Shown: positions 40,263-64,000, counted from the first letter of the stretch. The stretch: DNA of 64,000 nucleotides from an uncultured Ignavibacteriales bacterium (GCA_964611355.1 CAZSYD010000007.1:1-64000), one strand, 5' to 3'. A program made the numbers and translations. The notes: generated by a model from the letters alone, not told the origin.

Positions 40263-41654
40263 TTACTCAACGGTCCCAACCGATTCAGGTTCAGCTATCG
40301 ACAAACCCGCTTCGCGGCTGAAGTTTTTCTCAATGAAGGAGGTTTCAAATTGACCGGAAACGAAATCCGGATGGGACAGAATCAATTTGTGAAAATCTAT
40401 CGTTGTCGGGACGCCCTCGATTACAAACTCTTCAAGGGCTGTAAGCGTCTTTCCGATAGTCTCGGCGCGGTTTTTTCCCCGGACAATCAATTTGCCGATC
40501 ATGGAATCGTAGAAAACAGGAATTACATATTGGGAATAAGCATGCGTGTCAACCCGGACGCCTTGTCCGCCGGGTTGATGAAAAACGGTTATCTGCCCGG
40601 GCGCCGGACGAAATCCTCTGGATGGATCCTCGGCATTGATGCGGCACTCAATCACATGACCACGGAATTGTATATCCGACTGGGCCAGCTCCATCCGTTC
40701 ACCTGAGGCGATTTTTATCTGCTCGGCGACAATATCGATGCCGGTCAGCTCCTCGGTCACCGGATGTTCGACCTGGATACGGGTATTCATCTCCATAAAA
40801 TAGAAGTTTCCCTCGCCGTTGACTAAAAATTCGATCGTTCCGGCTCCGCGATAACCGACGGCCGCAGCCCCGAGAACAGCTGTCTCACCCATCCTTTTCC
40901 GCAGTTCATTATTGACTACCGGCGATGGCGATTCTTCGAGGAGTTTTTGGTGCCTTCGCTGAATGCTGCAGTCACGTTCGCCCAAGTGAATAATATTGCC
41001 GTAATGATCGCCGAGAATCTGTACTTCGACATGATGTGCCCTGGAGATTATTCTCTCAATATAAAGGGAACCATCATTAAAGGCGGCTTCGGCTTCGGCC
41101 CGCGCCATATTAAAGGCGGTTTCCAGCTCTTCCGGGGCAGAAGCAATCCGCATGCCTTTTCCTCCTCCGCCGGCCGAGGCTTTGATCAAAACCGGATACC
41201 CGATCTCCCCAGCTACCTGAGCGGCCTGGTCAATATCCCTGACCAGACCATTCGAGCCGGGAATCGTCGGCACGCCCGCTTCGCTCATCAACTCTTTTGC
41301 CCGTGCCTTGGCCCCCATTTGACGGATCATTTGCCCGCTCGGCCCTATAAAGGTAATGCCGCATTCCTCGCAGATTTCGGCGAATTCGGCGTTTTCGGCC
41401 AGAAAACCGTATCCCGGATGAATGGCGTCGGCATTGGTAACTTCGGCGGCGGCAATAATTCTTTTGGGGTCGAGGTAAGATTCAAGGGCCATCGGCGGCC
41501 CGATGCAGACATCCTCGTCGGCAAAACGGACATGCAAAGAATCACGATCGGCCTCGGAATAAACGGCGACCGTTTTTATTCCAAGTTGGCGACAGGCCCG
41601 GATTATTCTCAGAGCAATTTCGCCCCGATTGGCTATCAATACCTTCTTAAACAA
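40263..41654 (-). CDS. accC: Acetyl-CoA carboxylase biotin carboxylase subunit
   Basis: [25 protein letters not shown] and [10 protein letters not shown] motifs. Confidence 0.97.
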
Positions 41655-41818: not shown

Positions 41819-42949
41819 TCACGGAAACGTATTTGCCGATGATTCCGAAACGTCAACACCGTCGCCGCCCCAACGGTCGGAGGCGCCGACGATACCTTTG
41901 ACGCGCATGTCGAAATCGTCAGGATTGGAGGCGTTTTTCATCGCCTCTTCAAGGCTGATATTACCCTGCTTGTACAGTTTCATAATCGCCTGATCGAATG
42001 TCTGCATACCATACTGGGAGCCGCTTTCAACCAGTTCGGGAATATTGACGAATTTGTCCTGATCGATAATGCAGTCCTTGACGGCGGCGGTGTTTATCAT
42101 GATTTCAAGGGCCGGAACCAAGCCGGGCATGTCATAACGGGTCAAAAGTCTCTGGCAGACGATCGCTCTTAGGGTACCGGCCAAAAGCAACCGGATTTCC
42201 TGGTGCTGGTGCGGCGGGAAAAATGAAATAATACGGCTTATCGTCTGGAGGGTATTAAGGGTATGCAAAGTAGTCATAACAAGATGCCCCGTATCGGCGG
42301 CAGTCAGCGCAATCGACATCGTTTCGAGATCACGAATCTCACCGATCAGAATTACGTCCGGGTCCTGGCGAAAAGCATGACGCAGGGCAGTGGCGAAGCT
42401 TTCTGTATCGCCGCCAATCTCGCGCTGCGCGATGATACATTTTTTATCCCTAAAGATATACTCAATCGGGTCTTCGATGGTCATGATATTGCTGGTGCAG
42501 GTATTGTTCATCTGCTCGATAATCGCCGCCAGCGTGGTCGATTTGCCGGAACCGGTGGTTCCGGTGATAATAATAAGCCCGCGGTTCTTTTCGGAAAGCT
42601 TCTTTACCGTATCGGGGATATGGAGTTCTTCAAAACTGGGAATACGCGTATTGACGGCTCGAAGAGCCAAACCGGTGGTTCCGCGCTGACGGAAAAGATT
42701 GATACGAAAACGTCCCAGTTTGGCTACCGACAGGGCCAGATCCATTTCGTTGCGCTTAAAAAACTTCTGCTGCTGCTCTTCGGTAAGAACCTGAGAAATT
42801 ATGGTTTGCATTACGTCAATAGAGAGGGGATCTGTTTCGATCTGCTGCAGAATGCCGTTGACGCGAATGTAAGGTCTCAGGCCGACTCTTAGGTGAAGGT
42901 CCGACGCTTTCCGTTTCAACATTTCGGTCAACATTTGTTTCAGGTTCAT
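41819..42949 (-). CDS. PilT/PilU-family type IV pilus retraction ATPase (second paralog)
   Basis: ASDLH, GTTGSGKST, TIEDPIE, RQDPDVILIGE, TGHLVMTTLH and GMQTFDQ; the AIRNLIRE motif is replaced by AVKDCIID. Confidence 0.92.
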   Translation of the reverse strand: MNLKQMLTEMLKRKASDLHLRVGLRPYIRVNGILQQIETDPLSIDVMQTIISQVLTEEQQQKFFKRNEMDLALSVAKLGRFRINLFRQRGTTGLALRAVNTRIPSFEELHIPDTVKKLSEKNRGLIIITGTTGSGKSTTLAAIIEQMNNTCTSNIMTIEDPIEYIFRDKKCIIAQREIGGDTESFATALRHAFRQDPDVILIGEIRDLETMSIALTAADTGHLVMTTLHTLNTLQTISRIISFFPPHQHQEIRLLLAGTLRAIVCQRLLTRYDMPGLVPALEIMINTAAVKDCIIDQDKFVNIPELVESGSQYGMQTFDQAIMKLYKQGNISLEEAMKNASNPDDFDMRVKGIVGASDRWGGDGVDVSESSANTFP

Positions 42950-42975: not shown

Positions 42976-43452
42976 CTATCCGGACGGGTCGATCAAAAAG
43001 AGGGTTTGACCGAACTCAACCGGTTGAGCATTTTTAATACACACCTTGACGACCCGGCCCGCCACGTCGGATTCGATTTCGTTCATCAGCTTCATCGCCT
43101 CGACGATGCAAACCACCTGTCCTTTATCGACATGCCGGCCCACATCCGTATATGGCTCAGCGTCCGGGGCTGGGGCGACGTAAAAGGTACCGACCATCGG
43201 TGATTTGACGGGGACGTACTTGTCTTCGTCAGTCTTTTGCTCACCGCCCGGCTCTTCCTGCGGAGAAACCGGCACCGGCATTCCCTGAGGCACAGCGACG
43301 TACTGCCCGGCAGGACTACCGCCGTTGCCGGAAGACGGGCCGTTGAGCCTCCGCGTGATCCGTACCTTTGTTCCCCATCTCGAAACTTCGAGTACGTCTA
43401 TATCAGATTCTTCGACCAACCGGATGAGATTCTTTATTGATTTTTCCTTCAT
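42976..43452 (-). CDS. accB: Acetyl-CoA carboxylase biotin carboxyl carrier protein
   Basis: SPMVGTFY and the EAMKLMNEI biotinylation motif. Confidence 0.97.
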   Translation of the reverse strand: MKEKSIKNLIRLVEESDIDVLEVSRWGTKVRITRRLNGPSSGNGGSPAGQYVAVPQGMPVPVSPQEEPGGEQKTDEDKYVPVKSPMVGTFYVAPAPDAEPYTDVGRHVDKGQVVCIVEAMKLMNEIESDVAGRVVKVCIKNAQPVEFGQTLFLIDPSG

Positions 43453-43497
43453 ATTCGACCCCAATTTATACAGATATAAAAAGGTAACCGCTACTGA

Positions 43498-52999: not shown

Positions 53000-54721
53000 T
53001 TATTGTGAAAACGAAACCGGAACTGCCGGGACCGGCTTCCGCCCGGTCGATTCTTCACTGATTTCACGGAAATACAGCCGGAATTCAGCCCCTTTCCCGG
53101 GCGGCGACGAGAGTTCCACCCTTCCATTATGGGTTTCCATCAGGCGGGAAACGATGGCAAGCCCCAGACCGGTACCCCCCTTTTTGGTGGAATAGAACGG
53201 CAGGAAAACCTTGTCCGCGTGTTCCCGTGGAATGCCCAGGCCGTTGTCGCGTACCATCAGGCAAATCTCTTCTTTTTTCCCCGTCTTGCGGATCGTTTTC
53301 ACTTCAAATTCAATCAGGCCGCCTTTCTTCCCAAGAGCATCGCAGGCATTAACGGCCAGATTAAGAATCAACTGTTTCAGTTGATCTTCATCGCCGGAGA
53401 TATATACAATATTGTTTTCGGAATGAAATCCGATTTCGATGTTTTCATTGAAAGACGGGTGTTGCCGGATAACCTCAATAATATCCAGAATTGTTCGATT
53501 CAGTTCAACCTTTTGGATCTGAGTACGGCCTACCCGGGCATATAGAAGAAAATCGGAAAGTATCTTATTGAGCCGGGAAGTTTCCTTGATGATAAGAAAC
53601 ATCAGTTTTTCGTTGTCACCTTCGAGAAGCAGATCGTTCTTGAGGACTTCTACCGAGCCGGATATAGACGCAAGGGGATTACGAATTTCGTGGGCAATAT
53701 AGGCTGAAAGTTCCCCTACCGCAGCCATGCGATCAGCCTGCCTAATTCTTTCCTCAAGTTTTTTGGCATCGGTGATATCCTGGAAAATCGCAATCAGCCC
53801 GCGAATATTATTATTTTCATCAAACAGCAATGACGCGGAAATACCAATCGGGACCGTTTCCCCTTTGCCGTTAACGATTCCGATTTCCGCGCGCATCAGA
53901 TGCTGATGCGATTCGAGAACCGATGAAAGATGATCCGCCAGAGCAGCTAACCGCCCGGAGAAAATCCGCCGGCAGTTCATCCCGACCGCTTCCGATTCCT
54001 TAAGGCCAAGAATAGCCTCGGCGGCCCGATTGAAATAGATCACCTTTCCTCGCCGATTCACCGTCAACAGGCCCGAATTGAGATGGTATAGAATGTCGCC
54101 CGTCTCAAGCCTGACTTTTGTAAGCTCAACCGAGGCCAACTGCAGTTCCTTATCCTTCGATTGCAGCTTCTGGGCAAGATAACCGGCAATAAACGCGACC
54201 AGATAAAAGATTAAAATATGCAGAAAGGTGGCATAGAAAAGGGTGTCATCGGTCGAGAAAAGATTGCCGCCGGAAGGAAATATTCGTCCGCCGAGCCCGG
54301 CAAAGGAAGCGTTCATCCAGGTTACGGAGGCATACGCAAGGCTGACCAGCGAGGCCACCGCCAGAGTCCCGACCAAGCGATAAACCAGCGCCGCCGAGAC
54401 AATGGTCAACAGAAAAAGCGCCGCGAAGGGGCTATAAAGACTGCCGGTAGTATAAACGATTCCGGCTTCACACAGGATTTCGGTAATGAAATACAGGGCT
54501 ATTAAAAAATAATAAAGAAAATAGACTTTCCACCGGCCAAGAAAAAGGAGCGTTGAAAAAGAAGCCAGAGTAATAAAACAATACGCAAGAAGCGACGCCC
54601 GCAAATATGACGGATAGCCGAGCCAGCCGACAATTACGCCAAATATAAGAGAAAAAGTAATAAGGCGCAACGGCATCAGCCAGGTGCTTTTTGTTCCGGC
54701 ATATATCCGGGCCGAATCCAT
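53000..54721 (-). CDS. pilS: PilS-like membrane sensor histidine kinase with PAS domain
   Basis: About 6 TMs, PAS, AHEIRNPL, NLAVNA, DNG, PFYSTK and GTGLGL; directly after pilC. Confidence 0.85.
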   Translation of the reverse strand: MDSARIYAGTKSTWLMPLRLITFSLIFGVIVGWLGYPSYLRASLLAYCFITLASFSTLLFLGRWKVYFLYYFLIALYFITEILCEAGIVYTTGSLYSPFAALFLLTIVSAALVYRLVGTLAVASLVSLAYASVTWMNASFAGLGGRIFPSGGNLFSTDDTLFYATFLHILIFYLVAFIAGYLAQKLQSKDKELQLASVELTKVRLETGDILYHLNSGLLTVNRRGKVIYFNRAAEAILGLKESEAVGMNCRRIFSGRLAALADHLSSVLESHQHLMRAEIGIVNGKGETVPIGISASLLFDENNNIRGLIAIFQDITDAKKLEERIRQADRMAAVGELSAYIAHEIRNPLASISGSVEVLKNDLLLEGDNEKLMFLIIKETSRLNKILSDFLLYARVGRTQIQKVELNRTILDIIEVIRQHPSFNENIEIGFHSENNIVYISGDEDQLKQLILNLAVNACDALGKKGGLIEFEVKTIRKTGKKEEICLMVRDNGLGIPREHADKVFLPFYSTKKGGTGLGLAIVSRLMETHNGRVELSSPPGKGAEFRLYFREISEESTGRKPVPAVPVSFSQ

Positions 54722-54757: not shown

Positions 54758-55957
54758 CTATCCGATCTTGCCGATGATATCAAACATCGGCAGGTACATG
54801 GCGATCAATACCCCGCCGATGACCGCGCCCATGAAAACAATAACGACCGGCTCGATCACCGAAGTTAACGCCGAAACGGCGGTATCGACTTCCTCATCGT
54901 AAAAATCAGCGATTTTGCTGAGCATTTCATCGAGCCCGCCGGTTTTTTCACCGACCGAAATCATCTGCGTGACCATGGGCGGAAACACGCCGGTTTCCTT
55001 CAATGGGCTGGTAATTGTATCGCCCTCGGCAATCGATATCACAGATTTCCTGATAGCATCATGGATAACGCGATTTCCGGCGGTCTTAGCCGTAATCTCA
55101 AGCGCCTCCAGAATTGAAACGCCGGAAGACAGCAGTGTGCCCAGCGTTCGGGTAAAGCGCGAGACGGCTGATTTGCGGATCAAACTCCCGAGAATCGGCA
55201 TATTAATTTTTACCTTATCAACCGAAAGGCGCCCGTTGGGCGTTCTCACGAAAAGCTTATACCCGATAATCATCGCCACTATTCCGATAATCATATACAG
55301 GAAATTCGCTTGAAGAAAATTGGAAATGGCCAGTATAAACAAGGTTGGTCCGGGAAGTTCCGAGCCTAAACCGGCAAACATATTGGCAAAAACCGGTACG
55401 ACAAAAGCCAGCATGGCGATCGTTACGCCGGTGGCCACAATGCTGATGACTATCGGATACATCATGGCGCCCTTGACTTTGCGGGCCAATGCGTCGGCCT
55501 TTTCGCGATAAGTCGACAGACGGACCAGGATGACATCCAGAGCGCCACCCATTTCGCCCGCCGCGACCATATTGACATAAAGCTGATCGAAAACCTTGGG
55601 ATGCTTGCCAAGGGCGTCCGCCAGCGTTGAGCCTCCCCCTACCGAGTCCTTGATATTTATAATCACTTTTCGCATTTCGGCCGACTCAACCTGGGCCGCC
55701 AGAATATCCAGGCACTGTATCATCGGCAGGCCGGAACCAATCATGGTTGCAAATTGCCGCGTGAATCTGGAAATAGCCTGTTTTTTAATCCCCGTGCCGA
55801 ATTTGATGTTTAGTTCGACCGATTTTTTGCGGGCGCCGGTTACCAGGATACGTCTTTGCCTGAGTATCCGTTCCAGGTCCTGCCGGCTTTTGGCTTTCAA
55901 AACGCCGGAAACCTGGGCACCGGCCATCGTCTTGCCCTTGTATTCGAATTCAGGCAT
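54758..55957 (-). CDS. pilC: Type IV pilus platform protein PilC
   Basis: FTRQFATM, AGEMGGAL, GAMMYP, GEKTG and IAMYLPMF motifs. Confidence 0.96.
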   Translation of the reverse strand: MPEFEYKGKTMAGAQVSGVLKAKSRQDLERILRQRRILVTGARKKSVELNIKFGTGIKKQAISRFTRQFATMIGSGLPMIQCLDILAAQVESAEMRKVIINIKDSVGGGSTLADALGKHPKVFDQLYVNMVAAGEMGGALDVILVRLSTYREKADALARKVKGAMMYPIVISIVATGVTIAMLAFVVPVFANMFAGLGSELPGPTLFILAISNFLQANFLYMIIGIVAMIIGYKLFVRTPNGRLSVDKVKINMPILGSLIRKSAVSRFTRTLGTLLSSGVSILEALEITAKTAGNRVIHDAIRKSVISIAEGDTITSPLKETGVFPPMVTQMISVGEKTGGLDEMLSKIADFYDEEVDTAVSALTSVIEPVVIVFMGAVIGGVLIAMYLPMFDIIGKIG

Positions 55958-55969
55958 CTATTCCACTCC

Positions 55970-57046
55970 TTAAGTAAACGCAGGGGAAGGCTGTTTGGAC
56001 AGGATTTCATTCAACTCCTGCTGATTGCTGCTGCGAGCCATGCAATCGTTGAGTGTTATCCTGCCGGCTCGATAAAGCTCCGCCAGCGACATGTTCATCG
56101 TTCGCATGCCATATTTCTGACCCGACTGAATCATGCTGTATATCTGGTGGATTTTATCATCCCGAATAATGGCCCGTATCGCCGGAGTACAAACCAGAAT
56201 CTCGAGCGCCAGCGCTCTTCCTCCGCCTATCCTGGGAACCAACTGCTGGGCGATAATGGCCTGAAGAGTAAACGAGAGTGTTACCCGAATCTGCTCCTGC
56301 TGGTTGGTTGGGAATACGTCGATGATGCGGTTGATCGTTTCCGGAGCCGAGTTGGTATGCAGCGTGGCAAAAGCCAGATGCCCCGTCTCGGAAATCGTCA
56401 GAGCCGCCTCAATCGTTTCCAGGTCACGCATCTCGCCAATCAGAACCACGTCCGGATCTTCACGGAGAGCATACTTTAAGGCGGAGGCGAACGATGGGGT
56501 ATCGGAATACACTTCGCGCTGATTAACAAGGCAGTTGTTATGACGATGGAGATATTCAATCGGGTCTTCGACGGTTATTATATGGCCATAACGTTCGCGG
56601 TTGATTTTATCTATAATGGAAGCCAGGGTTGTCGATTTACCGGAACCGGTCGGTCCAGTAACCAGAATCAGCCCGCGAGGAAGATTGGCGAGATCGGCCA
56701 CTACCCTGGGCAGGCCGAGTTCTTCGAAGCTCATGATCTTGAATGGTATCTGCCTGATAGCGGTGGCGATGTTTCCCCGTTGAAGGAAGATATTGGCCCG
56801 GAAACGACTCAGTCTCTCAATTCCAAAAGAAAGATCCAGCTCGCCTTTTTCCTCAAACTTTTTCCTTTGTTTTTCGTTCATGATACTATAGGCGAGCTTC
56901 ATAGTCATTTCCGAGGTCAAAATTTCATGCTCTGTTCGGACCAGCTTACCGTCAATTCTTATTTGAGGCGGGGTTCCAACAGTCAGATGCAAATCCGAGG
57001 CTCTCCGTTTCACCATTTCTTCAAGAAGATCATGCAGGCCTACCAT
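55970..57046 (-). CDS. pilT: Type IV pilus retraction ATPase PilT
   Basis: GPTGSGKST, LREDPD, ETGHLAFATLH and AIRAIIRD (AIRNLIRE-like). Confidence 0.96.
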   Translation of the reverse strand: MVGLHDLLEEMVKRRASDLHLTVGTPPQIRIDGKLVRTEHEILTSEMTMKLAYSIMNEKQRKKFEEKGELDLSFGIERLSRFRANIFLQRGNIATAIRQIPFKIMSFEELGLPRVVADLANLPRGLILVTGPTGSGKSTTLASIIDKINRERYGHIITVEDPIEYLHRHNNCLVNQREVYSDTPSFASALKYALREDPDVVLIGEMRDLETIEAALTISETGHLAFATLHTNSAPETINRIIDVFPTNQQEQIRVTLSFTLQAIIAQQLVPRIGGGRALALEILVCTPAIRAIIRDDKIHQIYSMIQSGQKYGMRTMNMSLAELYRAGRITLNDCMARSSNQQELNEILSKQPSPAFT

Positions 57047-57106
57047 TATTTCTCCCTTGGACAAAAAGGTAGTTCGACCGATTTATTACCGGGCACGTCA
57101 TATATA

Positions 57107-57260: not shown

Positions 57261-58964
57261 TCAACCGGTTCCGGTTATAGCGAAAACCTCTTTCAGGTCG
57301 ATCAGGCCAGTCATCAATTTGCCAACGGCAGCCGCGCGAAGAGTAAGCATCCCCTCTTCAATGGCTTTATCTCTTATTTCAACGTCGGTGGCCCGAGTCA
57401 GAATTAATTGTTCTATGGCCGGAGTGATCGGCATCACTTCGAAAATACCGTTTCGACCCGACCGTCCCGTCCCGTTGCACTCGTTACATCCCGGGGATTC
57501 AAAAACATCCCGGGTTGTTATATAATGTTCAGGGACATCAAGTGCCTTAATATCATCATCCGTTAATTTGTAGGGACGTTTGCAACTGGGGCAGAGCATT
57601 TTGGTCATTCTTTGGGCCATAATCAGCCGTGTGGCCGAGGATACCAGGTAATTGGGAATGCCCATATCAATCAGGCGGTTGATTGATGACGGGGCGTCAT
57701 TAGTATGCAGCGTCGAGAACACCAGGTGGCCGGTGAGAGCTGCGCGGATGGCGATCTCGGCTGTTTCACCGTCGCGGATCTCACCAACCATAATAACGTC
57801 CGGGTCCTGGCGCAAAAACGACCGCAGGGCGGAGGCAAATGTCAACCCTATATCCGACCTGACGAGTACCTGATTGATGCCGTCGAAATTGAACTCGACC
57901 GGGTCCTCGACGGTCATAATATTAATATCATCATTATTGATCTGCTTCAGCGCCGAATAAAGGGTGGTCGTCTTACCTGAACCGGTCGGGCCGGTTACCA
58001 GAATAATACCGAACGGAAGTTTGATCGCTCCGGAGAATCGGTCCAGCGCCTTGGGAGTGAATCCCAGTTTGGTCATATCGACTTTCAGAGCCTCAGGATC
58101 AAGGATTCGCATGACGACTTTTTCACCGAAAATCGTGGGTAAAATGGAAACTCGCAAATCGACCGGTCGCCGGTCGAGCTTGATCTTTATACGGCCGTCC
58201 TGGGGCAGGCGCCGTTCGGAGATGTCGAGATCCGACATAATCTTTACGCGCGAAATAATAGCCGCCCGGTACTTGAACGGCAGGGGAGCCATTTCGCGGA
58301 GAGTACCGTCAATGCGGTAACGAACCCGTATTCGTTTCTCATACATTTCGATATGGATATCCGAGGCTTCCATTCGCACGGCGTCTTTAATAATCGAATC
58401 AACCAGTCTGACCAGCGGCTTGTCCTGGACAACCGACTCAAGGTCAGTGGCGGAAAGATCCTCATCCTCGGTCGAGACGATCTCCAACTCTTCATCATCT
58501 TCCAGACCTTTAAGGATTTCGCTGACGTCTTCTTCACTACCGCGGTAGTATGTGTCTATCGATTTTTCAATCGACTTCTCAGGCGAGATTACCGGTTGAA
58601 CGTTACATCCGGTGATAAACTTAACGGCGTCCAGCACATAGATATTGTTTGGGTCGGCGATGGCGACGATAAGCGTCTTGCCCATTTTGGAAACGGCAAT
58701 GACATTGAATTTCCGGGCAATATCAAGCGGGATCAGCTTGACGACTTCGGGGTTAAGCTCCACGTCACTGAGACGCAGCGAGCCCATATTGAGTTGCCTG
58801 CCGATGAAGTCAGCCAGGTCATCTTCGGAGGTGACGGCTCCGATTTCAACAAGAGCCCGTTCAAACTTCGAGTTTTTGCCACCCCTTAAGGCAAGCGCTT
58901 TATCCAGTTGCTCCTGAGTAATCTTGCCGGCTTTCACCAGCATGGCACCTAACTCAGCGGACAT
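57261..58964 (-). CDS. pilB: Type IV pilus assembly ATPase PilB
   Basis: LGAML N-terminus, ASDIH, ERRLPQDG, GPTGSGKTT, RQDPD and the tetra-Cys Zn motif (CPSC...CNEC). Confidence 0.96.
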   Translation of the reverse strand: MSAELGAMLVKAGKITQEQLDKALALRGGKNSKFERALVEIGAVTSEDDLADFIGRQLNMGSLRLSDVELNPEVVKLIPLDIARKFNVIAVSKMGKTLIVAIADPNNIYVLDAVKFITGCNVQPVISPEKSIEKSIDTYYRGSEEDVSEILKGLEDDEELEIVSTEDEDLSATDLESVVQDKPLVRLVDSIIKDAVRMEASDIHIEMYEKRIRVRYRIDGTLREMAPLPFKYRAAIISRVKIMSDLDISERRLPQDGRIKIKLDRRPVDLRVSILPTIFGEKVVMRILDPEALKVDMTKLGFTPKALDRFSGAIKLPFGIILVTGPTGSGKTTTLYSALKQINNDDINIMTVEDPVEFNFDGINQVLVRSDIGLTFASALRSFLRQDPDVIMVGEIRDGETAEIAIRAALTGHLVFSTLHTNDAPSSINRLIDMGIPNYLVSSATRLIMAQRMTKMLCPSCKRPYKLTDDDIKALDVPEHYITTRDVFESPGCNECNGTGRSGRNGIFEVMPITPAIEQLILTRATDVEIRDKAIEEGMLTLRAAAVGKLMTGLIDLKEVFAITGTG

Positions 58965-59030
58965 TCATTTACCCCTACCATATTTCATCGATGCAAAGGC
59001 GGCCTGTGTAAGGCTTTTTCGGATTACCCG

Positions 59031-59519
59031 TTAGTCCTTGAAGATATCGTCGAGCTTGTCGCCGGCCGAGGCGGCAAAATCAGCCGAGACCCCGGGTTGT
59101 TCCTGCTGGGACCTGTCGGTAAAGCTGGTAAATATCTTGGCCAATTCGCTCGAGGTCTCCTTGGCATACAGACGAACCATCCCGATTGTGGTCCGATCAT
59201 CGAAGATCACCACCAGAATCGACCGCTCACCGACCAGGGACATATGAATATGGTCTTTCTTCCCCTGGTGGAACAACACGGAAAACTCCGTCTCGCCGAC
59301 CAGCCTGGCGATTTCCCTGGTGGAAGCGAAAGATCCGGCCAGCAGAGCTGCCAGGGCCGTCGTGTCCAGGGAATGTGTAAAACCCTGGCGCGTTATAAGA
59401 TGCCCGTCTTTATCCACCAGGAGGGCGCATTTTGCTTCCGCCCCCTTAAGCAGCTTGGTCAGCAGGGAGTCTATCCGAATAATCTCTTCCTCGTAAATAA
59501 TCAGCGCATCTTCACTCAC
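59031..59519 (-). CDS. mglB: MglB-type roadblock/LC7 protein (GAP)
   Basis: IYEEE..., LLVDKDG, LDTTALAAL.AG, IFDDRTTIGMVRL and a C-terminal LDDIF helix; closely follows the Myxococcus MglB pattern as I recall it. Confidence 0.88.
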   Translation of the reverse strand: MSEDALIIYEEEIIRIDSLLTKLLKGAEAKCALLVDKDGHLITRQGFTHSLDTTALAALLAGSFASTREIARLVGETEFSVLFHQGKKDHIHMSLVGERSILVVIFDDRTTIGMVRLYAKETSSELAKIFTSFTDRSQQEQPGVSADFAASAGDKLDDIFKD

Positions 59520-59535
59520 GGAGGTTTCCTCCTAC

Positions 59536-60714
59536 CTATTTTAACCCGAACAGGCGTTTGATGAATGATCGTTTCCCGGGCGGCTTTTCAGCTCTCAGGG
59601 GCGGTTCCATTCGCGGCGCACCCGTCGGGGTTACATTCCTTTCCGGTTGACTATCTCCGCCAAATGCAGCGGCCGCTTCAGAATTGCGGGCAATACCGAC
59701 GCTACCGGAATCCAAGGGCCCACCTATACGAGCGGAGTCATGATGTCTTCTCCGATTCATCCGCTGTTCATCCTCCATCGTATTTCCAGGGAAGGGACGA
59801 GACACCGGTTCAACCCTGACCGAGGGTTGAACATCCGGTTGAGCGGGCGCCGGTTGCCGGGGTTCCGGATTCCGGACAACTTCCTGTCTTACCGGAGTCA
59901 ATTCCGGCTGAGGCACCGGTTGGCGCGCAACGGGGGCGACCGTCTCCTGACGAATATGCTCCGGACGTGCGGGCTCCTGATATACCGGTTCACTAATTTC
60001 CTTATAGGCCGCCTGGACAGGCAGAGGCAGAGGCTGAGATATTGGTCGAGGGGGCGGCGAGACCGCTGCAGGTTGCGGCTGCGTCGGTTGCGGCGCTTGT
60101 CCGGCGGCAGTTGCAGTGGACGGAACGGTACCGCCCGATTTGGCCTTTTCCAGAACCAGCTTCAGAATACATTTCAAAGTATCAAATACGCCGAACCCTT
60201 CGGTGGCCGAAGCCCTAAATTCCATCCAGCCGTGCGGATTAATCGTCGGGTTCATCTGCTCCGGGGTAAGAATTCCGGGCAGATCTTGTTTGTTATATTG
60301 AATAACGACCGGTATATCTTCCAATTTATATCCGTACTCAGTCAGATTTTCCTTGAGATTATTAAACGATTCGATGTTTTCATCCATTTTGTCGGGTTGA
60401 GAATCGGCCACAAAAACCAGACCGTCAACCCCTCGCAGAACCAGTTTGCGGGTAGCATTATAATACACCTGCCCGGGGACGGTATAGAGCTGAAACTTGG
60501 CGGCAAAGCCGTTTATAGTACCGATATTTATCGGTAAAAAATCGAAGTAGAGGGTCCGATCGGCATCGGTGGCAAGCGAAATCAGTTTCCCCTTGGTATC
60601 CGGGGGAACCTTTTTATGGACATACTGCAGGTTGGTCGTCTTGCCCGATAAACCCGGCCCATAGTAGACAATCTTGCAACTGACCTCTCTGGAGGCGTAA
60701 TTTATTGAAACCAT
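59536..60714 (-). CDS. mglA: MglA-family small GTPase with a ~200 aa C-terminal extension
   Basis: YYGPGLSGKTTN (G1), DRTLYFDF (intrinsic Arg), TVPGQ, NKQD and SAT. Confidence 0.93.
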   Translation of the reverse strand: MVSINYASREVSCKIVYYGPGLSGKTTNLQYVHKKVPPDTKGKLISLATDADRTLYFDFLPINIGTINGFAAKFQLYTVPGQVYYNATRKLVLRGVDGLVFVADSQPDKMDENIESFNNLKENLTEYGYKLEDIPVVIQYNKQDLPGILTPEQMNPTINPHGWMEFRASATEGFGVFDTLKCILKLVLEKAKSGGTVPSTATAAGQAPQPTQPQPAAVSPPPRPISQPLPLPVQAAYKEISEPVYQEPARPEHIRQETVAPVARQPVPQPELTPVRQEVVRNPEPRQPAPAQPDVQPSVRVEPVSRPFPGNTMEDEQRMNRRRHHDSARIGGPLDSGSVGIARNSEAAAAFGGDSQPERNVTPTGAPRMEPPLRAEKPPGKRSFIKRLFGLK

Positions 60715-60724
60715 CTTTCCGCTT

Positions 60725-61075
60725 TCACTTAATCGCTTCCTGCCGGCTTAGCTTGCTAATCGCGTTTTTGATCTCCAGTCGAACCAGTCCGATGTTAACC
60801 TCCGGTTCCGCCACGACAACCAGAATGCCTATTTCGGCATCGCAGAAAAACATCTTGGCATTATCGGCTTCAATCGTCACCTGAGTCAGTGGCCTTGATT
60901 CAAGACGCTCCAGCGACTTTTGAATATTGGAGGTTATGGACGCGGCAAGGGCACCGATGGCTTCCTCATCATACCGGGTGTTGAGATCGGCTGCGATCAC
61001 AATTCCATCGTTGCCCACGACCATGCTGCCGATGATCCCGCTTGTTTTGTTTAATACCTCAAGAATTTGATACAT
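60725..61075 (-). CDS. Stand-alone roadblock/LC7 protein
   Basis: GIIGSMVVGNDGIVIA...IGALAA...NIGLVRLEI; GGAGG RBS before ATG 61075. Confidence 0.88.
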   Translation of the reverse strand: MYQILEVLNKTSGIIGSMVVGNDGIVIAADLNTRYDEEAIGALAASITSNIQKSLERLESRPLTQVTIEADNAKMFFCDAEIGILVVVAEPEVNIGLVRLEIKNAISKLSRQEAIK

Positions 61076-62063
61076 AGCGTTCCTCCGCCCTGGCAAACAT
61101 CGCCGGGCTATACCGTTCACTCATATATTTTCGAACCATATCCGCCGCCTGGGCAATGCGGATATGGATTGTTTCATCGATATCCCTATCCGCCAGAATC
61201 ATCAGATTTACGTGTTCAATACGCCTTAGGATTACCCTTATTCTGTGTGTGCTCAGGTCTATTCTTTCCGCTGATTCCTTGTGTTCGAACCGCTCCAGCA
61301 GGTCACGGCAGGCCTGTCTTAACATGATTGCCAGAGGGGCCCACATTTCAACATCGTCGCCGTTCCGATCATAGCGGGCCAGAAGCAACCCTTCCTCGTC
61401 AACCAGCAAAGCCATTTGGACGGCGTTTAATTCGCCGAGGTAAGCTACAGCCCTCTCAAACTGGTTTTCATCGGCGGTATAGGCTGACGCCTGAGCGCCC
61501 GCCCTGACGCTATTCGGGACCGCCTCTTCTCGCCGGTCGTTAGCCGTTCCCCCGCCGACCGCAATCTCGTTCACGGCCGGATAAGCCTGATATTTGGTCG
61601 GTATATTGTCCGGGTAAATGACCGGCTTGGAAGCCGGTTCGGCACGGGAGGTTTTTTCTTTCCCGGCAGGCATCATTTGTTCCGCCAGACTCAGGTAAAA
61701 CGGTCGCATGATGAATGGAGCCGCGATTACGTGCAAAATCACTCCGGGCAGATATTTTGTCATACCGAGCGAGAACGAAACGGAACTACCAAGACCGTAC
61801 ATTATAATTATGGCCAGTCCAAAGGCCGCTCCCAAAGCCATCCGGTATACAAGCGTTAAGGCCGAACTGACCATCAGGGCAGCCAGCGTGGTCTCGCGGC
61901 GGAAAAGAAAATAAACAAACCCGTAAAAGAGAAATTCGTAAAGCATATTAACAGCCGAGCCGCCGGCCAGCGGCAATCCCAGGCGGTTGGGGAAAATGAC
62001 AATAGGAATGACCACCAGGATCAACGAGAACAACAAAATCAGTCGTCTGCTATTTTTATCCAT
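61059..62063 (-). CDS. Membrane protein (about 4 TM) with a C-terminal roadblock-like domain
   Basis: Hydrophobic first ~125 aa, a low-complexity linker, then VQMALLVDEEGLLLA... roadblock pattern. Confidence 0.75.
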   Translation of the reverse strand: MDKNSRRLILLFSLILVVIPIVIFPNRLGLPLAGGSAVNMLYEFLFYGFVYFLFRRETTLAALMVSSALTLVYRMALGAAFGLAIIIMYGLGSSVSFSLGMTKYLPGVILHVIAAPFIMRPFYLSLAEQMMPAGKEKTSRAEPASKPVIYPDNIPTKYQAYPAVNEIAVGGGTANDRREEAVPNSVRAGAQASAYTADENQFERAVAYLGELNAVQMALLVDEEGLLLARYDRNGDDVEMWAPLAIMLRQACRDLLERFEHKESAERIDLSTHRIRVILRRIEHVNLMILADRDIDETIHIRIAQAADMVRKYMSERYSPAMFARAEERYVSNS

Positions 62064-62084
62064 ACCAACTGTCTCCCGGCAGTA

Positions 62085-62993
62085 TCAGGCGGAAAGGCGC
62101 GGCAAGAGTGACGTCAACTTCATCTTCAAAGAACCAAGGTTGACAGTTTCCGAGCATACCACGGCCAGAAGCCGGCCGCAGGCGCCCGCCATATACGTCA
62201 ATGAACCATCCGTTTCGATCATCATCGACTGCAAATCGCCAAATCCGCTTTCGCGCATCTGGATGGTACTGTACTTGGCCGTTTCGGCCGCCAGGGCGGC
62301 TACCAGATCGGTTTCGCCCGGAATATTCCATTCCGCCTCGATTACCAGACCGTCAGCATTAACCAATAGAACTCCTTCAACTCCCGGCGTTCCGACCAGC
62401 GACCGCAGCATCTGCTTAAAATCAATATCCGGTTGTGGCGGCGCTTCCGCAGGTGCAGGGGGCGGCGGCGGGGAGAATTGCGGAGCCTTTTGTACGGCCA
62501 CAGGCGAAGTCGCGGAATATGCCGCGGAGGCGGGTTCCGGTGTGACGGCGGCCCGACCGCTATGATCGACGTTGAGCGGAATCTTTCTGGCAATCTCAAG
62601 AAGCTTTTTTATCTGATCATTTTCGGGGTCTGCCCGGTGCAGTTTCTCAAGTAATCGGCAGGCCTTATTGAACTCGCCTTTATATATATGGATTTCCGAC
62701 AGGAGCAGTTCGGCGGCCCGGGTAGTCCCATCCAGTTCGATCGCCTTCTCAACCTCGGCCTCCGCCCAATCGTATAGCCCCTTATCCATGTTAATTTTGG
62801 CCATAACCATATGGGCGGAACCGTAGTTCGTATGTATTTTAAGACCATTCTGACAGATACGAAAGGCTTTATCCAATTCCCCCTTTTTGCGGTGCGCATC
62901 AGCCAGGGCGGCAAAAATTTGCGAACCCGGATTCTGATCCAGGATTTTATTGCACTTGGCAATTCTATCATCTATGTCTGACCGGTCAATCAT
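62085..62993 (-). CDS. TPR + Pro-rich linker + roadblock/LC7 protein
   Basis: PGSQIFAALADAHRKKG TPRs, a PPPPP linker, then PGVEGVLLVNADGLVI...NLGSLKM. Confidence 0.82.
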   Translation of the reverse strand: MIDRSDIDDRIAKCNKILDQNPGSQIFAALADAHRKKGELDKAFRICQNGLKIHTNYGSAHMVMAKINMDKGLYDWAEAEVEKAIELDGTTRAAELLLSEIHIYKGEFNKACRLLEKLHRADPENDQIKKLLEIARKIPLNVDHSGRAAVTPEPASAAYSATSPVAVQKAPQFSPPPPPAPAEAPPQPDIDFKQMLRSLVGTPGVEGVLLVNADGLVIEAEWNIPGETDLVAALAAETAKYSTIQMRESGFGDLQSMMIETDGSLTYMAGACGRLLAVVCSETVNLGSLKMKLTSLLPRLSA

Positions 62994-63086
62994 TCTTTTA
63001 TTCCGCTATGAATAAGGCCATCCCATACTTTTTCGTTATCGAACGGATAATAACCGATGGCCAAATTTCAGTCAAACAAAATCGAA

Positions 63087-63449
63087 TTATCCCAAAACCT
63101 TGCGGGTTTGGAATAATCCTATAAACCAAAGCGTTACCGTGGCCAGATACATTATTCCCGCTACGTCAAAAGTAATGGTAAAAAAGCCCAGTTTTTCGGC
63201 AAGAACAAATACCTGACCCGCCGCCAGGGTAATAAACGATACGACGAACAACTGCCAGCCTCGGGCCAGAGCCCCGCCCCTGACCAGTCCAAGCAACTTA
63301 ATCGCGACGCCAAGACAGGCTGCCGCGCCGATCAGGATGATTAGATTCAGCATCACCGGTACCTGGGCCAGGCTGGAAAAATCAGCGGCTGCGGCGCGAT
63401 TGGACGACAGGAAAACGATCGCCGCCGCGGTTATCAAAAGTTTACGCAT
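63087..63449 (-). CDS. Small membrane protein (signal-like N-terminus + 3 TM)
   Basis: Hydrophobic ORF translationally coupled (TAATG overlap) to the upstream gene. Confidence 0.65.
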   Translation of the reverse strand: MRKLLITAAAIVFLSSNRAAAADFSSLAQVPVMLNLIILIGAAACLGVAIKLLGLVRGGALARGWQLFVVSFITLAAGQVFVLAEKLGFFTITFDVAGIMYLATVTLWFIGLFQTRKVLG

Positions 63450-64000
63450 TATGACGCACCTGTAAGCATTTTAACGGTTCGTTCGGCTTTCCGGATCGAG
63501 TCATAAAGGTTTTCGTCCAGCCGATATTTCTTAACCAGTTCACGACGCAACGCCAATGGCTCGGAGATTTCCTTTTTCACGTGGCCGATGGCCTCATGGA
63601 ACAGTTCCTGTCCCAGACGGTCAAAAATATATTCGAGCTGCTGGTGAAGCATATCTTCGAGCACGGTAAGCAGCCTATGCAAGCGCACCGATTCCGGAAT
63701 CTTTCGCGCCTCGGTCAGGAACTTTTCGAATGACGGCCCCGAGTCCGACCTTATATCCCAACCGGGGAAAAAGACCAATACCCCGTGACGGAAACCCGAC
63801 ATAAACCGAGAATAGTCGGGATTGGACACCCCTACCATACTTTCTACTACTTTGCGAATCCTCAGAAAGCAGGCGTTGTAAAGCCTGAAAATAATGCCCA
63901 AGATGATTTCTTCTTCATCCTCTCCGGGGCCGATATCCTCGCCCGAAGCCCGCCCAGCGCCTTCCACCAGGCCGCTAACAACCAGCTTATACAAGGCCCG
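63449..64000 (-). CDS. C-terminal part of a hypothetical protein, possibly DUF4388(PatA-N)-type; starts beyond the window
   Basis: Open frame to the window edge; RALYKLVVSGLVE resembles the winged-helix end seen in DUF4388 proteins. Confidence 0.5.
   Translation of the reverse strand, partial: RALYKLVVSGLVEGAGRASGEDIGPGEDEEEIILGIIFRLYNACFLRIRKVVESMVGVSNPDYSRFMSGFRHGVLVFFPGWDIRSDSGPSFEKFLTEARKIPESVRLHRLLTVLEDMLHQQLEYIFDRLGQELFHEAIGHVKKEISEPLALRRELVKKYRLDENLYDSIRKAERTVKMLTGAS

Follow-up and report, generated by a model that had tools for sequence, protein, structure and literature searches.

The MglA/MglB couple serves as the model system for the way in which bacterial cells establish and reverse a front-rear axis, and in the species studied it relies on a soluble MglA of 195 residues, recruited to the pole via other proteins whose roles are disputed. 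How such a switch is built when its genes lie in one block with those of the pilus motor is the question raised by a stretch of 64,000 nucleotides (nt) from an uncultured Ignavibacteriales bacterium (GCA_964611355.1, CAZSYD010000007.1:1-64000; hereafter the window), which comprises the first 64 kb of a 79-kb contig in a draft genome of 2.57 Mb and 96% completeness. The GTPase encoded here carries its own predicted membrane anchor, kept across a phylum, shares the block with the pilus motor, and has among its likely partners a membrane-embedded roadblock protein. The reading that we prefer, with a probability of roughly 0.6, is that of a phylum-wide Zixibacteria locus in which the MglA/MglB switch has been rebuilt as a membrane-resident system controlling the type IVa pilus motor. 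What is observed are the components with their folds and conservation and their location next to the motor, and from these all the functions proposed below are deduced.

Eleven genes, all on the minus strand, to which every coordinate of the cluster refers, run from position 64660 of the contig down to 53000, encoding (i) a PATAN (DUF4388) protein, (ii) a small membrane protein, (iii) a TPR-roadblock fusion, (iv) a membrane-anchored, transmembrane (TM) roadblock, (v) a stand-alone roadblock, (vi) MglA, (vii) MglB, (viii) PilB, (ix) PilT, (x) PilC, and (xi) a PilS-like kinase. The successive spacings are -1, 93, 21, an overlap, 10, 16, 66, 196, 12 and 36 nt, with mglA and mglB 16 nt apart, mglB and pilB 66 nt apart, and pilB and pilT 196 nt apart. 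A preliminary description of this DNA had proposed seven co-oriented, packed genes running into pilB-pilT-pilC-pilS, with four roadblock domains for one GTPase and mglB downstream of mglA; all these genes exist, in the order and on the single strand claimed, mglB does follow mglA, and three of the four roadblock domains lie above the Pfam cut-off, the fourth being recognized by profile and fold. The comparison across species relies on a scan with one genome per species, comprising 80 loci whose frames were matched to the window proteins by phmmer, and the 27 loci whose MglA groups with that of the window are termed the related loci. The four roadblock matches and the sole MglA match of the 2.57-Mb genome all fall within approximately 3.3 kb, inside the cluster, and since every one of the 27 related loci shows this arrangement again, the clustering is not due to chance.

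MglA (59536-60714; 392 amino acids, aa) comprises a G domain (residues 1-195; 60130..60714) followed by a tail of 197 residues, and is thus not a plain small GTPase. Residues 3-195 match the whole length of M. xanthus MglA with an E value of 2.8e-78 and Thermus MglA with 1.5e-73 (phmmer against solved chains), and the P-loop GxxxxGKT (G19-T26), R53, T78, Q82, N141, K142, and D144 are invariant in 20 relatives. According to the MglA literature, Arg53 corresponds to the intrinsic arginine, and Thr78 takes the place of the Asp before PGQ. MglB (59031..59519; 162 aa) is formed by a roadblock domain (Pfam Robl_LC7, 9.1e-14, 51.4 bits) and a conserved C-terminal helix; its family profile matches the M. 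xanthus MglB chains over positions 4-161 (4.8e-44) and Thermus MglB (8.4e-21), and the protein scores 92.7 bits on the NCBIfam model of Thermus-type MglB, under its cut-off of 200. The G-domain match, the retention of R53, T78, Q82, and the NKxD motif, and the profile match of MglB therefore identify a true MglA and a true MglB: judged by sequence, the first is homologous to characterized MglA and the second is canonical, with a predicted role as GTPase-activating protein (GAP).

The tail sets this MglA apart in size. At 392 aa the protein exceeds the single-domain range of 150-240 aa in a 2015 survey of prokaryotic small GTPases (PMC4316618), which excluded sequences longer than 240 aa; a long-tailed class of MglA would consequently have been missed by design. 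The preliminary description overlooked both the tail and its predicted C-terminal membrane anchor. Its interpretation stands in part, namely for the anatomy, the fusions, the synteny, and the uncultured lineage; its proposal of a distinct polarity system in place of or in addition to RomR/RomX/SgmX, with Ragulator-like roadblock heterodimers, is a functional hypothesis. The long MglAs of the 27 related loci span 328-442 aa, with linkers of 135-249 residues. In the window the linker (residues 196-380; 59575..60129) is Pro-rich, variable in length and sequence, and predicted disordered, the Pro content reaching 18.6% over residues 194-392 versus 5.7% in the G domain, and the alignment of 20 relatives (A1) sets a near-invariant G domain against a tail that varies in both length and sequence. 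The tail holds the motifs RPFPGNT (~59779-59799) and PxM(A/E)P(S/P)L(R/K) (~59593-59616), with R306, P307, P309, G310, M369, and P371 invariant in A1, and RP[FY]PG occurs in 119 of the 120 best homologues, which are proteins of 215-686 aa from the protein collection. In the AlphaFold2 (AF2) model the tail shows a predicted local distance difference test (pLDDT) of 34-51, except for a helix at residues 313-326, after the first motif; the full-length model is poor (mean pLDDT 55.5, with the switch regions of the G domain low too), and was drawn on for tail disorder and nothing else.

The last 12 codons of mglA (KRSFIKRLFGLK; 59539..59574) encode a basic amphipathic end, read as a putative MinD-type membrane-targeting helix. 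The consensus of this end, KKRSFFKRLFGLK, compares with ..KKGFLKRLFGG for E. coli MinD, whose end in its genome record is ..EEEKKGFLKRLFGG. F384, K386, L388, F389, and G390 are invariant in the 20 relatives, and F[FLIW][KRAS][KR]LFG lies within the last 12 residues of 118 of the 120 best homologues, the remaining two being a close variant and a protein that ends early without the motif. The net charge of the last 16 residues ranges from +2 to +9 in the 27 related loci. The C-terminal end of MinD is an amphipathic membrane-targeting helix (PMC8155659), and the MglA peptide resembles this proven sequence, its lipid binding being predicted from the likeness.

Long MglAs with other ends occur elsewhere among the 80 loci, and comprise (i) four proteins with a hydrophobic helix of ~20 residues at the very C-terminus (L055, L059, L078, and L082), (ii) Fibrobacterota proteins with other basic amphipathic ends (L031, L033, L050, and L054), and (iii) the proteins of nine Fibrobacter loci, whose long tail ends in ..DDEIELRPYVPKKK. 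In a quick maximum-likelihood tree of 81 G domains, which is unrooted, covers the loci most like the query, and shows clustering and not the order of events, the Zixibacteria-type MglAs form one group (support 98), the four helix-ended MglAs fall within one group of five (support 99), and a branch with support 75 has all the 30 short MglAs to one side of it. The gene order varies with the tail in the 80 loci, a long-tailed mglA always being followed by mglB and a short mglA being preceded by it. Because the same position is occupied by ends of different chemistry, an amphipathic or a hydrophobic helix, membrane attachment would be the selected function; we infer the membrane anchoring of MglA from three facts: the end peptide nearly copies that of MinD, it is invariant, and relatives have a transmembrane helix in its place.

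The end peptide may instead serve as a protein-docking peptide on a disordered linker, as in the case of the C-terminal peptide of FtsZ, with the TPR domain or the membrane roadblock as possible partner. The two other invariant short motifs of the tail must bind something, and the Fibrobacter ends are not amphipathic. The hydrophobic moment of the window peptide, 0.42 compared with 0.45 for the MinD end, is lower than that of buried G-domain helices (up to 0.66), and the helix predicted at the terminus by AF2 is short (residues 385-388) and of low confidence (pLDDT 57-59). These properties have to be set against the closeness to the membrane-targeting end of MinD, the positive net charge, and the hydrophobic transmembrane helix that related MglAs display at the same position, a replacement not expected of a docking peptide. 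Docking is accordingly considered quite unlikely, and a membrane anchor remains the preferred function of the MglA end. As a marker of the peptide, the hydrophobic moment was discarded, for it does not set the end apart from ordinary helices.

Further observations concern the loci in which these other long MglAs reside. The MglAs of L055, L059, L078, and L082, of Planctomycetota type, measure 327-400 aa and resemble small GTPases of the tail-anchored kind; upstream, L055, L059, and L082 encode a PATAN protein of 1055-1127 aa, a TPR-roadblock gene is also present in L055 and L059, and a roadblock-type gene lies beside MglA in L055, L059, L078 (a 266-aa frame), and L082. The Fibrobacter MglAs (L057, L060, L066, L069, L070, L075, L077, L079, and L081) span 313-336 aa, with mglB directly after; their tails repeat RMP(S/T)F and end ..DD(E/D)I(E/V)LRPY(V/I/K)PK.., and no PATAN or extra roadblock gene was detected in the flanks of these nine loci.

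The second departure from a simple MglA/MglB pair is the presence of three further roadblock proteins. The TPR-roadblock fusion (62085..62993; 302 aa) matches Pfam Robl_LC7 with 7.8e-11 and 42 bits against a cut-off of 23, together with several TPR families, and displays a TPR region at residues ~6-135, a Pro/Ala-rich linker, and a roadblock domain at ~190-300. It is found in 26 of the 27 related loci, the contig of the 27th starting too late to include it.

The TM-roadblock (61059..62063; 334 aa) is recognized by profile and fold, and carries an N-terminal membrane domain of helices (residues 3-130) that a disordered linker (131-199) connects to a roadblock domain (200-325). On Robl_LC7 it scores 14.6-17.1 bits, under the cut-off of 23, and the assignment is carried by other evidence. 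Family alignments built from the related loci (A2-A5) served for the roadblock comparisons, in which the C-terminal part of the TM-roadblock matches the stand-alone roadblock family with an hhalign probability of 93.7% (E 2e-7) and the TPR-roadblock family with 94.6% (E 7e-8); its profile also matches solved roadblock chains, including 7f8f (5.5e-7), dynein LC7, and LAMTOR2. The AF2 model has a mean pLDDT of 80.3, with values of 85-95 for the membrane helices and of 90-96 for the domain of residues 200-325, where the secondary structure follows the order alpha-beta-beta-alpha-beta-beta-beta-alpha. The best Foldseek matches comprise M. xanthus MglB (6hjm; E 2.6e-7; template modelling score, TM-score, of 0.79-0.83 on the target), LAMTOR2, and roadblocks from Streptomyces and Asgard, the target TM-scores ranging over 0.73-0.87. 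By profile and predicted fold, then, the TM protein is the carrier of a genuine roadblock domain despite its sub-threshold Pfam score. The fusions of roadblocks to membrane and TPR regions claimed beforehand are real, as judged from the Pfam TPR matches and from AF2 membrane helices together with Foldseek, and the Pfam families expected elsewhere in the cluster, Robl_LC7, TPR, and DUF4388, are all matched.

A profile search locates the TM-roadblock family in 277 of 285 genomes of the phylum of the window; among those of high quality it is present in 195 of 198, and at the level of genera in 128 of 130. The mark '1 TGA inside' attached to many of these matches corresponds, in the two cases read, to the own stop codon of the gene. 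The third roadblock gene is shorter in L026-L028, three of the 27 related loci, where it encodes only 135-149 aa, without the membrane part. Atlas look-alikes of the membrane domain score at most 0.84 and serve as a lead only. A weak CHASE8 match (E 0.0038, 17.9 bits against a cut-off of 27), which coincides in part with the beginning of the roadblock domain, was dropped.

The stand-alone roadblock (60725..61120; 131 aa from a GTG start) matches Robl_LC7 with 2.9e-12 and 46.6 bits against 23; its start is likelier the ATG at 61075, giving 116 aa, since the relatives measure 111-117 aa in 17 of the 27 loci. It represents the most conserved of the extra roadblocks, with a mean column identity of 66% versus 44% and 35% for the others (alignment A3 and its counterparts). 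Its profile matches the Asgard chains 7yh1 (1.3e-12) and 9jue, as well as CvnB5, LAMTOR2, and MglB, and no chain named MglC is found among its 32 matches. The closest family is the roadblock of the TPR-roadblock (hhalign 98.8%, E 1.2e-16), versus 32.6% for MglB; as far as these profile comparisons go, the three extra roadblocks form a paralogue group of their own, nearer to each other than to MglB. A complex prediction with the TPR-roadblock, the roadblock, and the MglA G domain with GTP scored 0.00 twice, without controls, and was used neither way.

At the upstream end of the cluster, the PATAN protein (403 aa; 63449..64660 of the contig, of which the window holds 63449..64000, the C-terminal 183 codons) matches Pfam DUF4388 (PF14332) with 1.5e-35 and 122.3 bits against a cut-off of 25, 156 residues covering 121 model positions. 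The PATAN domain (residues 4-159) harbors an alpha-clip, MshEN_N-like insertion (residues 52-115) that matches the N-termini of PilF (6f8l, 5.2e-7) and MshE (5htl, 2.1e-4). The MshEN-type receptor motif for cyclic di-GMP (c-di-GMP) comprises two tandem RLGxx(L/V/I)(L/V/I)xxG... repeats with Arg. Where PilF and MshE read RLG, the insertion shows LLG in repeat 1 and ALG (consensus QLG) in repeat 2, the latter with Glu where PilF and MshE have Gly; since the Arg of RLG is replaced in both repeats, a c-di-GMP input through the insertion is doubtful. The alpha-clip itself is already known in PATAN domains (Han 2021). No family matches the remainder of the protein, ~240 aa that are conserved at the C-terminus (A6 alignment, 25 rows); it resembles atlas clusters that in part carry PatA_N (0.94 and 0.91), a likeness that does not inform on function. 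Beyond this one, the genome has a single further PATAN/DUF4388 gene (G000:C21:28235-28705, minus strand), a 304-aa frame where an insertion likewise splits the domain match.

The small membrane protein (63087..63449; 120 aa) has no Pfam or NCBIfam match, and its sequence reads as a signal-peptide-like start and three hydrophobic helices, with the loop between helices 1 and 2 displaying (V/L)(R/K)GGxLSxxW, in which G58, G59, and W65 are invariant (alignment A7). The start of its gene overlaps the stop codon of the PATAN gene, which suggests coupled translation. The protein was detected by phmmer at the same place in 22 of the 27 related loci, and four others leave a gap of 374-494 nt there.

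The downstream part of the cluster encodes the motor. PilB (57261..58964; 567 aa), the type IVa extension ATPase, scores 682.2 bits on TIGR02538 against a cut-off of 675.65 and matches Pfam T2SSE with 2.3e-136; PilT (55970..57064; 364 aa), the retraction ATPase, scores 502.2 bits on TIGR01420 against 319.1; and PilC (54758..55957; 399 aa), the platform protein, matches Pfam T2SSF twice (7.3e-64) and scores 507 and 420 bits on NCBIfam PilC models, under their cut-offs of 700. A type IVa motor is thus indicated by PilB and PilT at or above curated cut-offs and by the two T2SSF domains of PilC. The N-terminal domain of PilB matches Pfam MshEN (4.3e-17), and its residues 5-57 barely reach the c-di-GMP motif model NF053729 (38.9 bits against 38), so that the pilus motor itself may sense c-di-GMP through the PilB N-terminus; four GGDEF matches are found in the genome. 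The series closes with a PilS-like sensor histidine kinase (53000..54721; 573 aa) with Pfam 6TM_PilS (28.7 against 27), PAS, HisKA, and HATPase_c domains. Since pilM and the secretin gene reside on another contig, a full pilus machine is plausible, and chemoreceptor genes are also present in the genome. A second PilT-like ATPase is encoded in the window (41819-42949, minus strand; 376 aa; T2SSE 1.2e-48), between the genes of a biotin carboxyl carrier protein (42976-43464) and a biotin carboxylase (40263-41654).

The union of switch and motor is kept well beyond the window. The order from PATAN through PilS is preserved in all 27 related loci as far as the contigs reach, in the extended form (MurJ-ComEC)-PATAN-small TM-TPR-roadblock-TM-roadblock-roadblock-long MglA-MglB-PilB-PilT-PilC-PilS-(PpiC), and the synteny with pilB, pilT, and pilC on which the preliminary description depended therefore holds in relatives. 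The uncultured lineage that it had supposed is likewise borne out, the relatives being named Zixibacteria: the titles of the 27 loci read mostly Zixibacteria, several Ignavibacteria-type, one Terriglobales, and two 'bacterium'. The Ignavibacteria-type and Terriglobales titles are probably wrong labels of binned genomes, since the MglA concerned lies inside the Zixibacteria clade. The loci titled Ignavibacteria, Ignavibacteriales, Ignavibacteriaceae, or Terriglobales (L004, L005, L009, L012-L014, L017, L020-L022, and L029) show a complete Zixibacteria-type locus.

Among the other 53 loci, a PATAN gene is found in the flanks of 15, and a TPR-roadblock and/or a roadblock lies beside MglA/MglB in 10, with examples in Planctomycetota (L055, L059, and L082), Sumerlaeota (L034), and Gemmatimonadota (L051, L058, L067, and L080). 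This occurrence in other phyla indicates that PATAN, TPR-roadblock, roadblock, MglA, and MglB constitute a core extending beyond Zixibacteria; what characterizes the phylum is the TM-roadblock, the small TM protein, and the joining of the module to the motor genes. The four Gemmatimonadota loci carry the genes of a TPR-roadblock, a roadblock, and MglB, and then of a short MglA of 203-210 aa (mglB-mglA order). PATAN genes flank these on either side in L051 and L080, L067 has one upstream only and L058 one downstream only, and another long TPR protein is encoded upstream in L051, L067, and L080.

These data bear on whether the module and the motor are neighbors by synteny only, the module controlling flagellar or cell-pole organization, division, or envelope growth. 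A PilB/PilT-like frame appears in the flanks fetched for only one of the 53 other loci (L053), leaving 52 where the MglA neighborhood lacks one. The genes adjoining the cluster, of ComEC and MurJ upstream and of a PpiC-type isomerase downstream, have no known tie to MglA, and the flagellar export gene FlhA is present in the genome, which probably belongs to an organism with both pili and flagella. The transcription signals are also compatible with separate units, a consensus scan placing a promoter-like site (10 of 12 matches) 5' of the TPR-roadblock gene, and the 196-nt gap before pilT could hold another start. On the other hand, the gap between mglB and pilB is short, 66 nt in the window and 9-204 nt across the 27 related loci, and the same kind of scan finds no terminator-like site on its coding strand. 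MglA is described as controlling type IV pili in Myxococcus and Bdellovibrio, a PATAN domain binds PilB1 and PilC in Synechocystis, and pilus ATPases have an N-terminus to which the PATAN insertion is related. An association by synteny only is therefore held to be unlikely, and control of the pilus motor is retained as the preferred reading.

The upstream neighbors raise the further question of a tie to DNA uptake. ComEC (748 aa) and MurJ (520 aa) are encoded at 64795-68593 of the contig, directly upstream of the PATAN gene, ComEC with Competence and DUF4131 domains (1.9e-53); ComEC lies beside PATAN in 20 of the 27 related loci and MurJ in 16, the remainder being cut by contig ends, so that ComEC is kept in all the related loci that reach far enough. 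The locus could accordingly serve mainly for natural transformation, with a DNA-uptake pilus timed or placed by the module and working with the adjacent ComEC channel. The gap between ComEC and PATAN, 1-423 nt in the related loci and mostly more than 100 nt, counts against this, and PilT together with the PilS-like kinase suggests a type IVa pilus that can retract, a kind usually employed in twitching too. Transformation as the main purpose is very unlikely in our estimate; it would narrow the output of the system only, and is compatible with a membrane-resident switch acting on the motor.

Taken together, the parts suggest the following mechanism for the preferred reading. The C-terminal helix of MglA, at the end of a long flexible tether, would keep the GTPase on the inner side of the cytoplasmic membrane, and MglB would act as the GAP that switches it off. 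The membrane-anchored and TPR-bearing roadblocks probably pair, via their roadblock domains, with the stand-alone roadblock, the likely common partner as the most conserved of the three, to form a membrane platform. This platform may recruit MglA or MglB, or control the nucleotide cycle, at particular sites, and would take the role played by MglC, RomR/RomX, and RomY in Myxococcus. By analogy with Synechocystis, where yeast two-hybrid assays show PilB1 bound by the PATAN domain on its own and PilC's N-terminal domain by PatA-type regulators (preprint 10.1101/2021.06.11.447907), the PATAN protein would be the output that passes the state of the switch to PilB and/or PilC by contact. The net effect would be to set where and when the PilB/PilT motor engages the pilus base, hence the choice of pole or the turning on and off of twitching, and perhaps also DNA uptake. 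Seven proteins plus PilB, PilT, and PilC constitute a compact parts list for rebuilding a GTPase-controlled pilus switch.

Several points weigh against this reading. The evidence is genomic only, and frozen synteny could keep unrelated genes together, given that the block also holds MurJ, ComEC, and the PpiC-type isomerase. The FlhA gene implies that MglA could serve something other than pili, and motor genes near MglA are confined to one of the 53 loci beyond the related set. To these are added the modest hydrophobic moment and short predicted helix of the MglA end, and the absence of the RLG Arg from both repeats of the PATAN insertion.

The neighborhood of PATAN, roadblock, and MglA/MglB genes has been noted in print (Makarova 2006, as cited; Wuichet 2015; Han 2021). 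Within the literature found, from which the neighborhood tables of PMC4316618 were not covered, there is no description of a Zixibacteria MglA or of this architecture, of an MglA with an amphipathic or membrane anchor, or of Zixibacteria pilus genetics, in line with the earlier expectation that the arrangement was not already characterized. Four elements appear to be new, namely the MglA tail and anchor, the membrane-embedded roadblock, the TPR-roadblock as a fixed partner, and, at the scale of the phylum, the union with pilB-pilT-pilC.

The closest working model is the module of Myxococcus xanthus, comprising MglA, MglB, RomR/RomX, MglC, RomY, and SgmX, with the same GTPase and GAP families by sequence. 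Both systems share an extra roadblock beside MglB (MglC in Myxococcus), a TPR protein (SgmX in Myxococcus), and an output to type IV pili. In contrast, Myxococcus MglA comprises 195 aa, whereas the protein described here bears a tail of ~200 residues and a predicted membrane anchor, the order is mglA-mglB, three extra roadblocks are encoded, two of them fused to a TPR or membrane domain, and the whole forms one block with pilB-pilT-pilC. RomR comprises a receiver domain followed by a Pro-rich C-terminal region, and with this architecture as a crude compositional proxy, which makes for a weak negative, none of the 43 receiver-domain frames shows a Pro-rich C-terminal region (at most 7% Pro). 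The role of RomR/RomX has itself been disputed in a 2026 paper, which argues for an effector and not a guanine nucleotide exchange factor.

The cyanobacterial PatA-type (PATAN-REC) regulators PixE, PixG, and LsiR share the PATAN domain with the alpha-clip insertion, and their PATAN output binds PilB1 as well as PilC's N-terminal domain; they differ from the protein of the window, where the receiver domain is absent, a region of ~240 aa without family follows PATAN, and the coupling would be to a GTPase instead of a chemosensory kinase. The actinobacterial conservon (CvnA-D), described as a membrane-associated complex (PMC4316618), likewise has a GTPase of the MglA family together with a roadblock protein and a membrane sensor kinase. 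Here, however, the GTPase belongs to the intrinsic-arginine group, the kinase is PilS-like, and a DUF742/CvnC protein is absent from the Pfam matches of the 12 + 13 proteins scanned.

The Ragulator-Rag (LAMTOR) system likewise assembles several roadblock-fold proteins at a membrane with a small GTPase, and LAMTOR2 recurs among the sequence and fold matches. Ragulator employs lipidated LAMTOR1 as scaffold, and its partner Rag has a roadblock domain at the C-terminus of the GTPase; no LAMTOR1-like protein is encoded in the cluster, MglA has a disordered tail and no roadblock domain of its own, and anchoring would occur by membrane helices and an amphipathic peptide. The comparison is one of analogy and not of membership, any roadblock heterodimers being hypothetical. 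As for MinD, the end peptide of MglA is close to its C-terminal end, and since MinD belongs to another class of NTPase, the peptide would be either convergent or borrowed.

Finally, the eukaryotic Ras, Rho, and Rab proteins share with the window MglA the succession of G domain, variable disordered linker, and C-terminal anchor, but differ in that this MglA has no Cys, CaaX, or lipidation, and a far longer linker. A broader proposal, tentative and in our judgment possible rather than probable, is that this eukaryote-like layout was arrived at independently, with a MinD-like anchor in Zixibacteria and some Fibrobacterota and a tail-anchor helix in Planctomycetota-type lineages, and that the multi-roadblock platform acts as an exchange factor or landing pad like Ragulator, giving a self-contained switch that needs no RomR/RomX and is wired to the pilus motor via the PATAN adaptor. 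The C-terminal membrane-anchoring extension of small GTPases is regarded as having arisen during eukaryogenesis (PMC10933270, on Asgard GTPases), a claim on which a long-tailed bacterial MglA with a predicted membrane anchor of its own directly bears.

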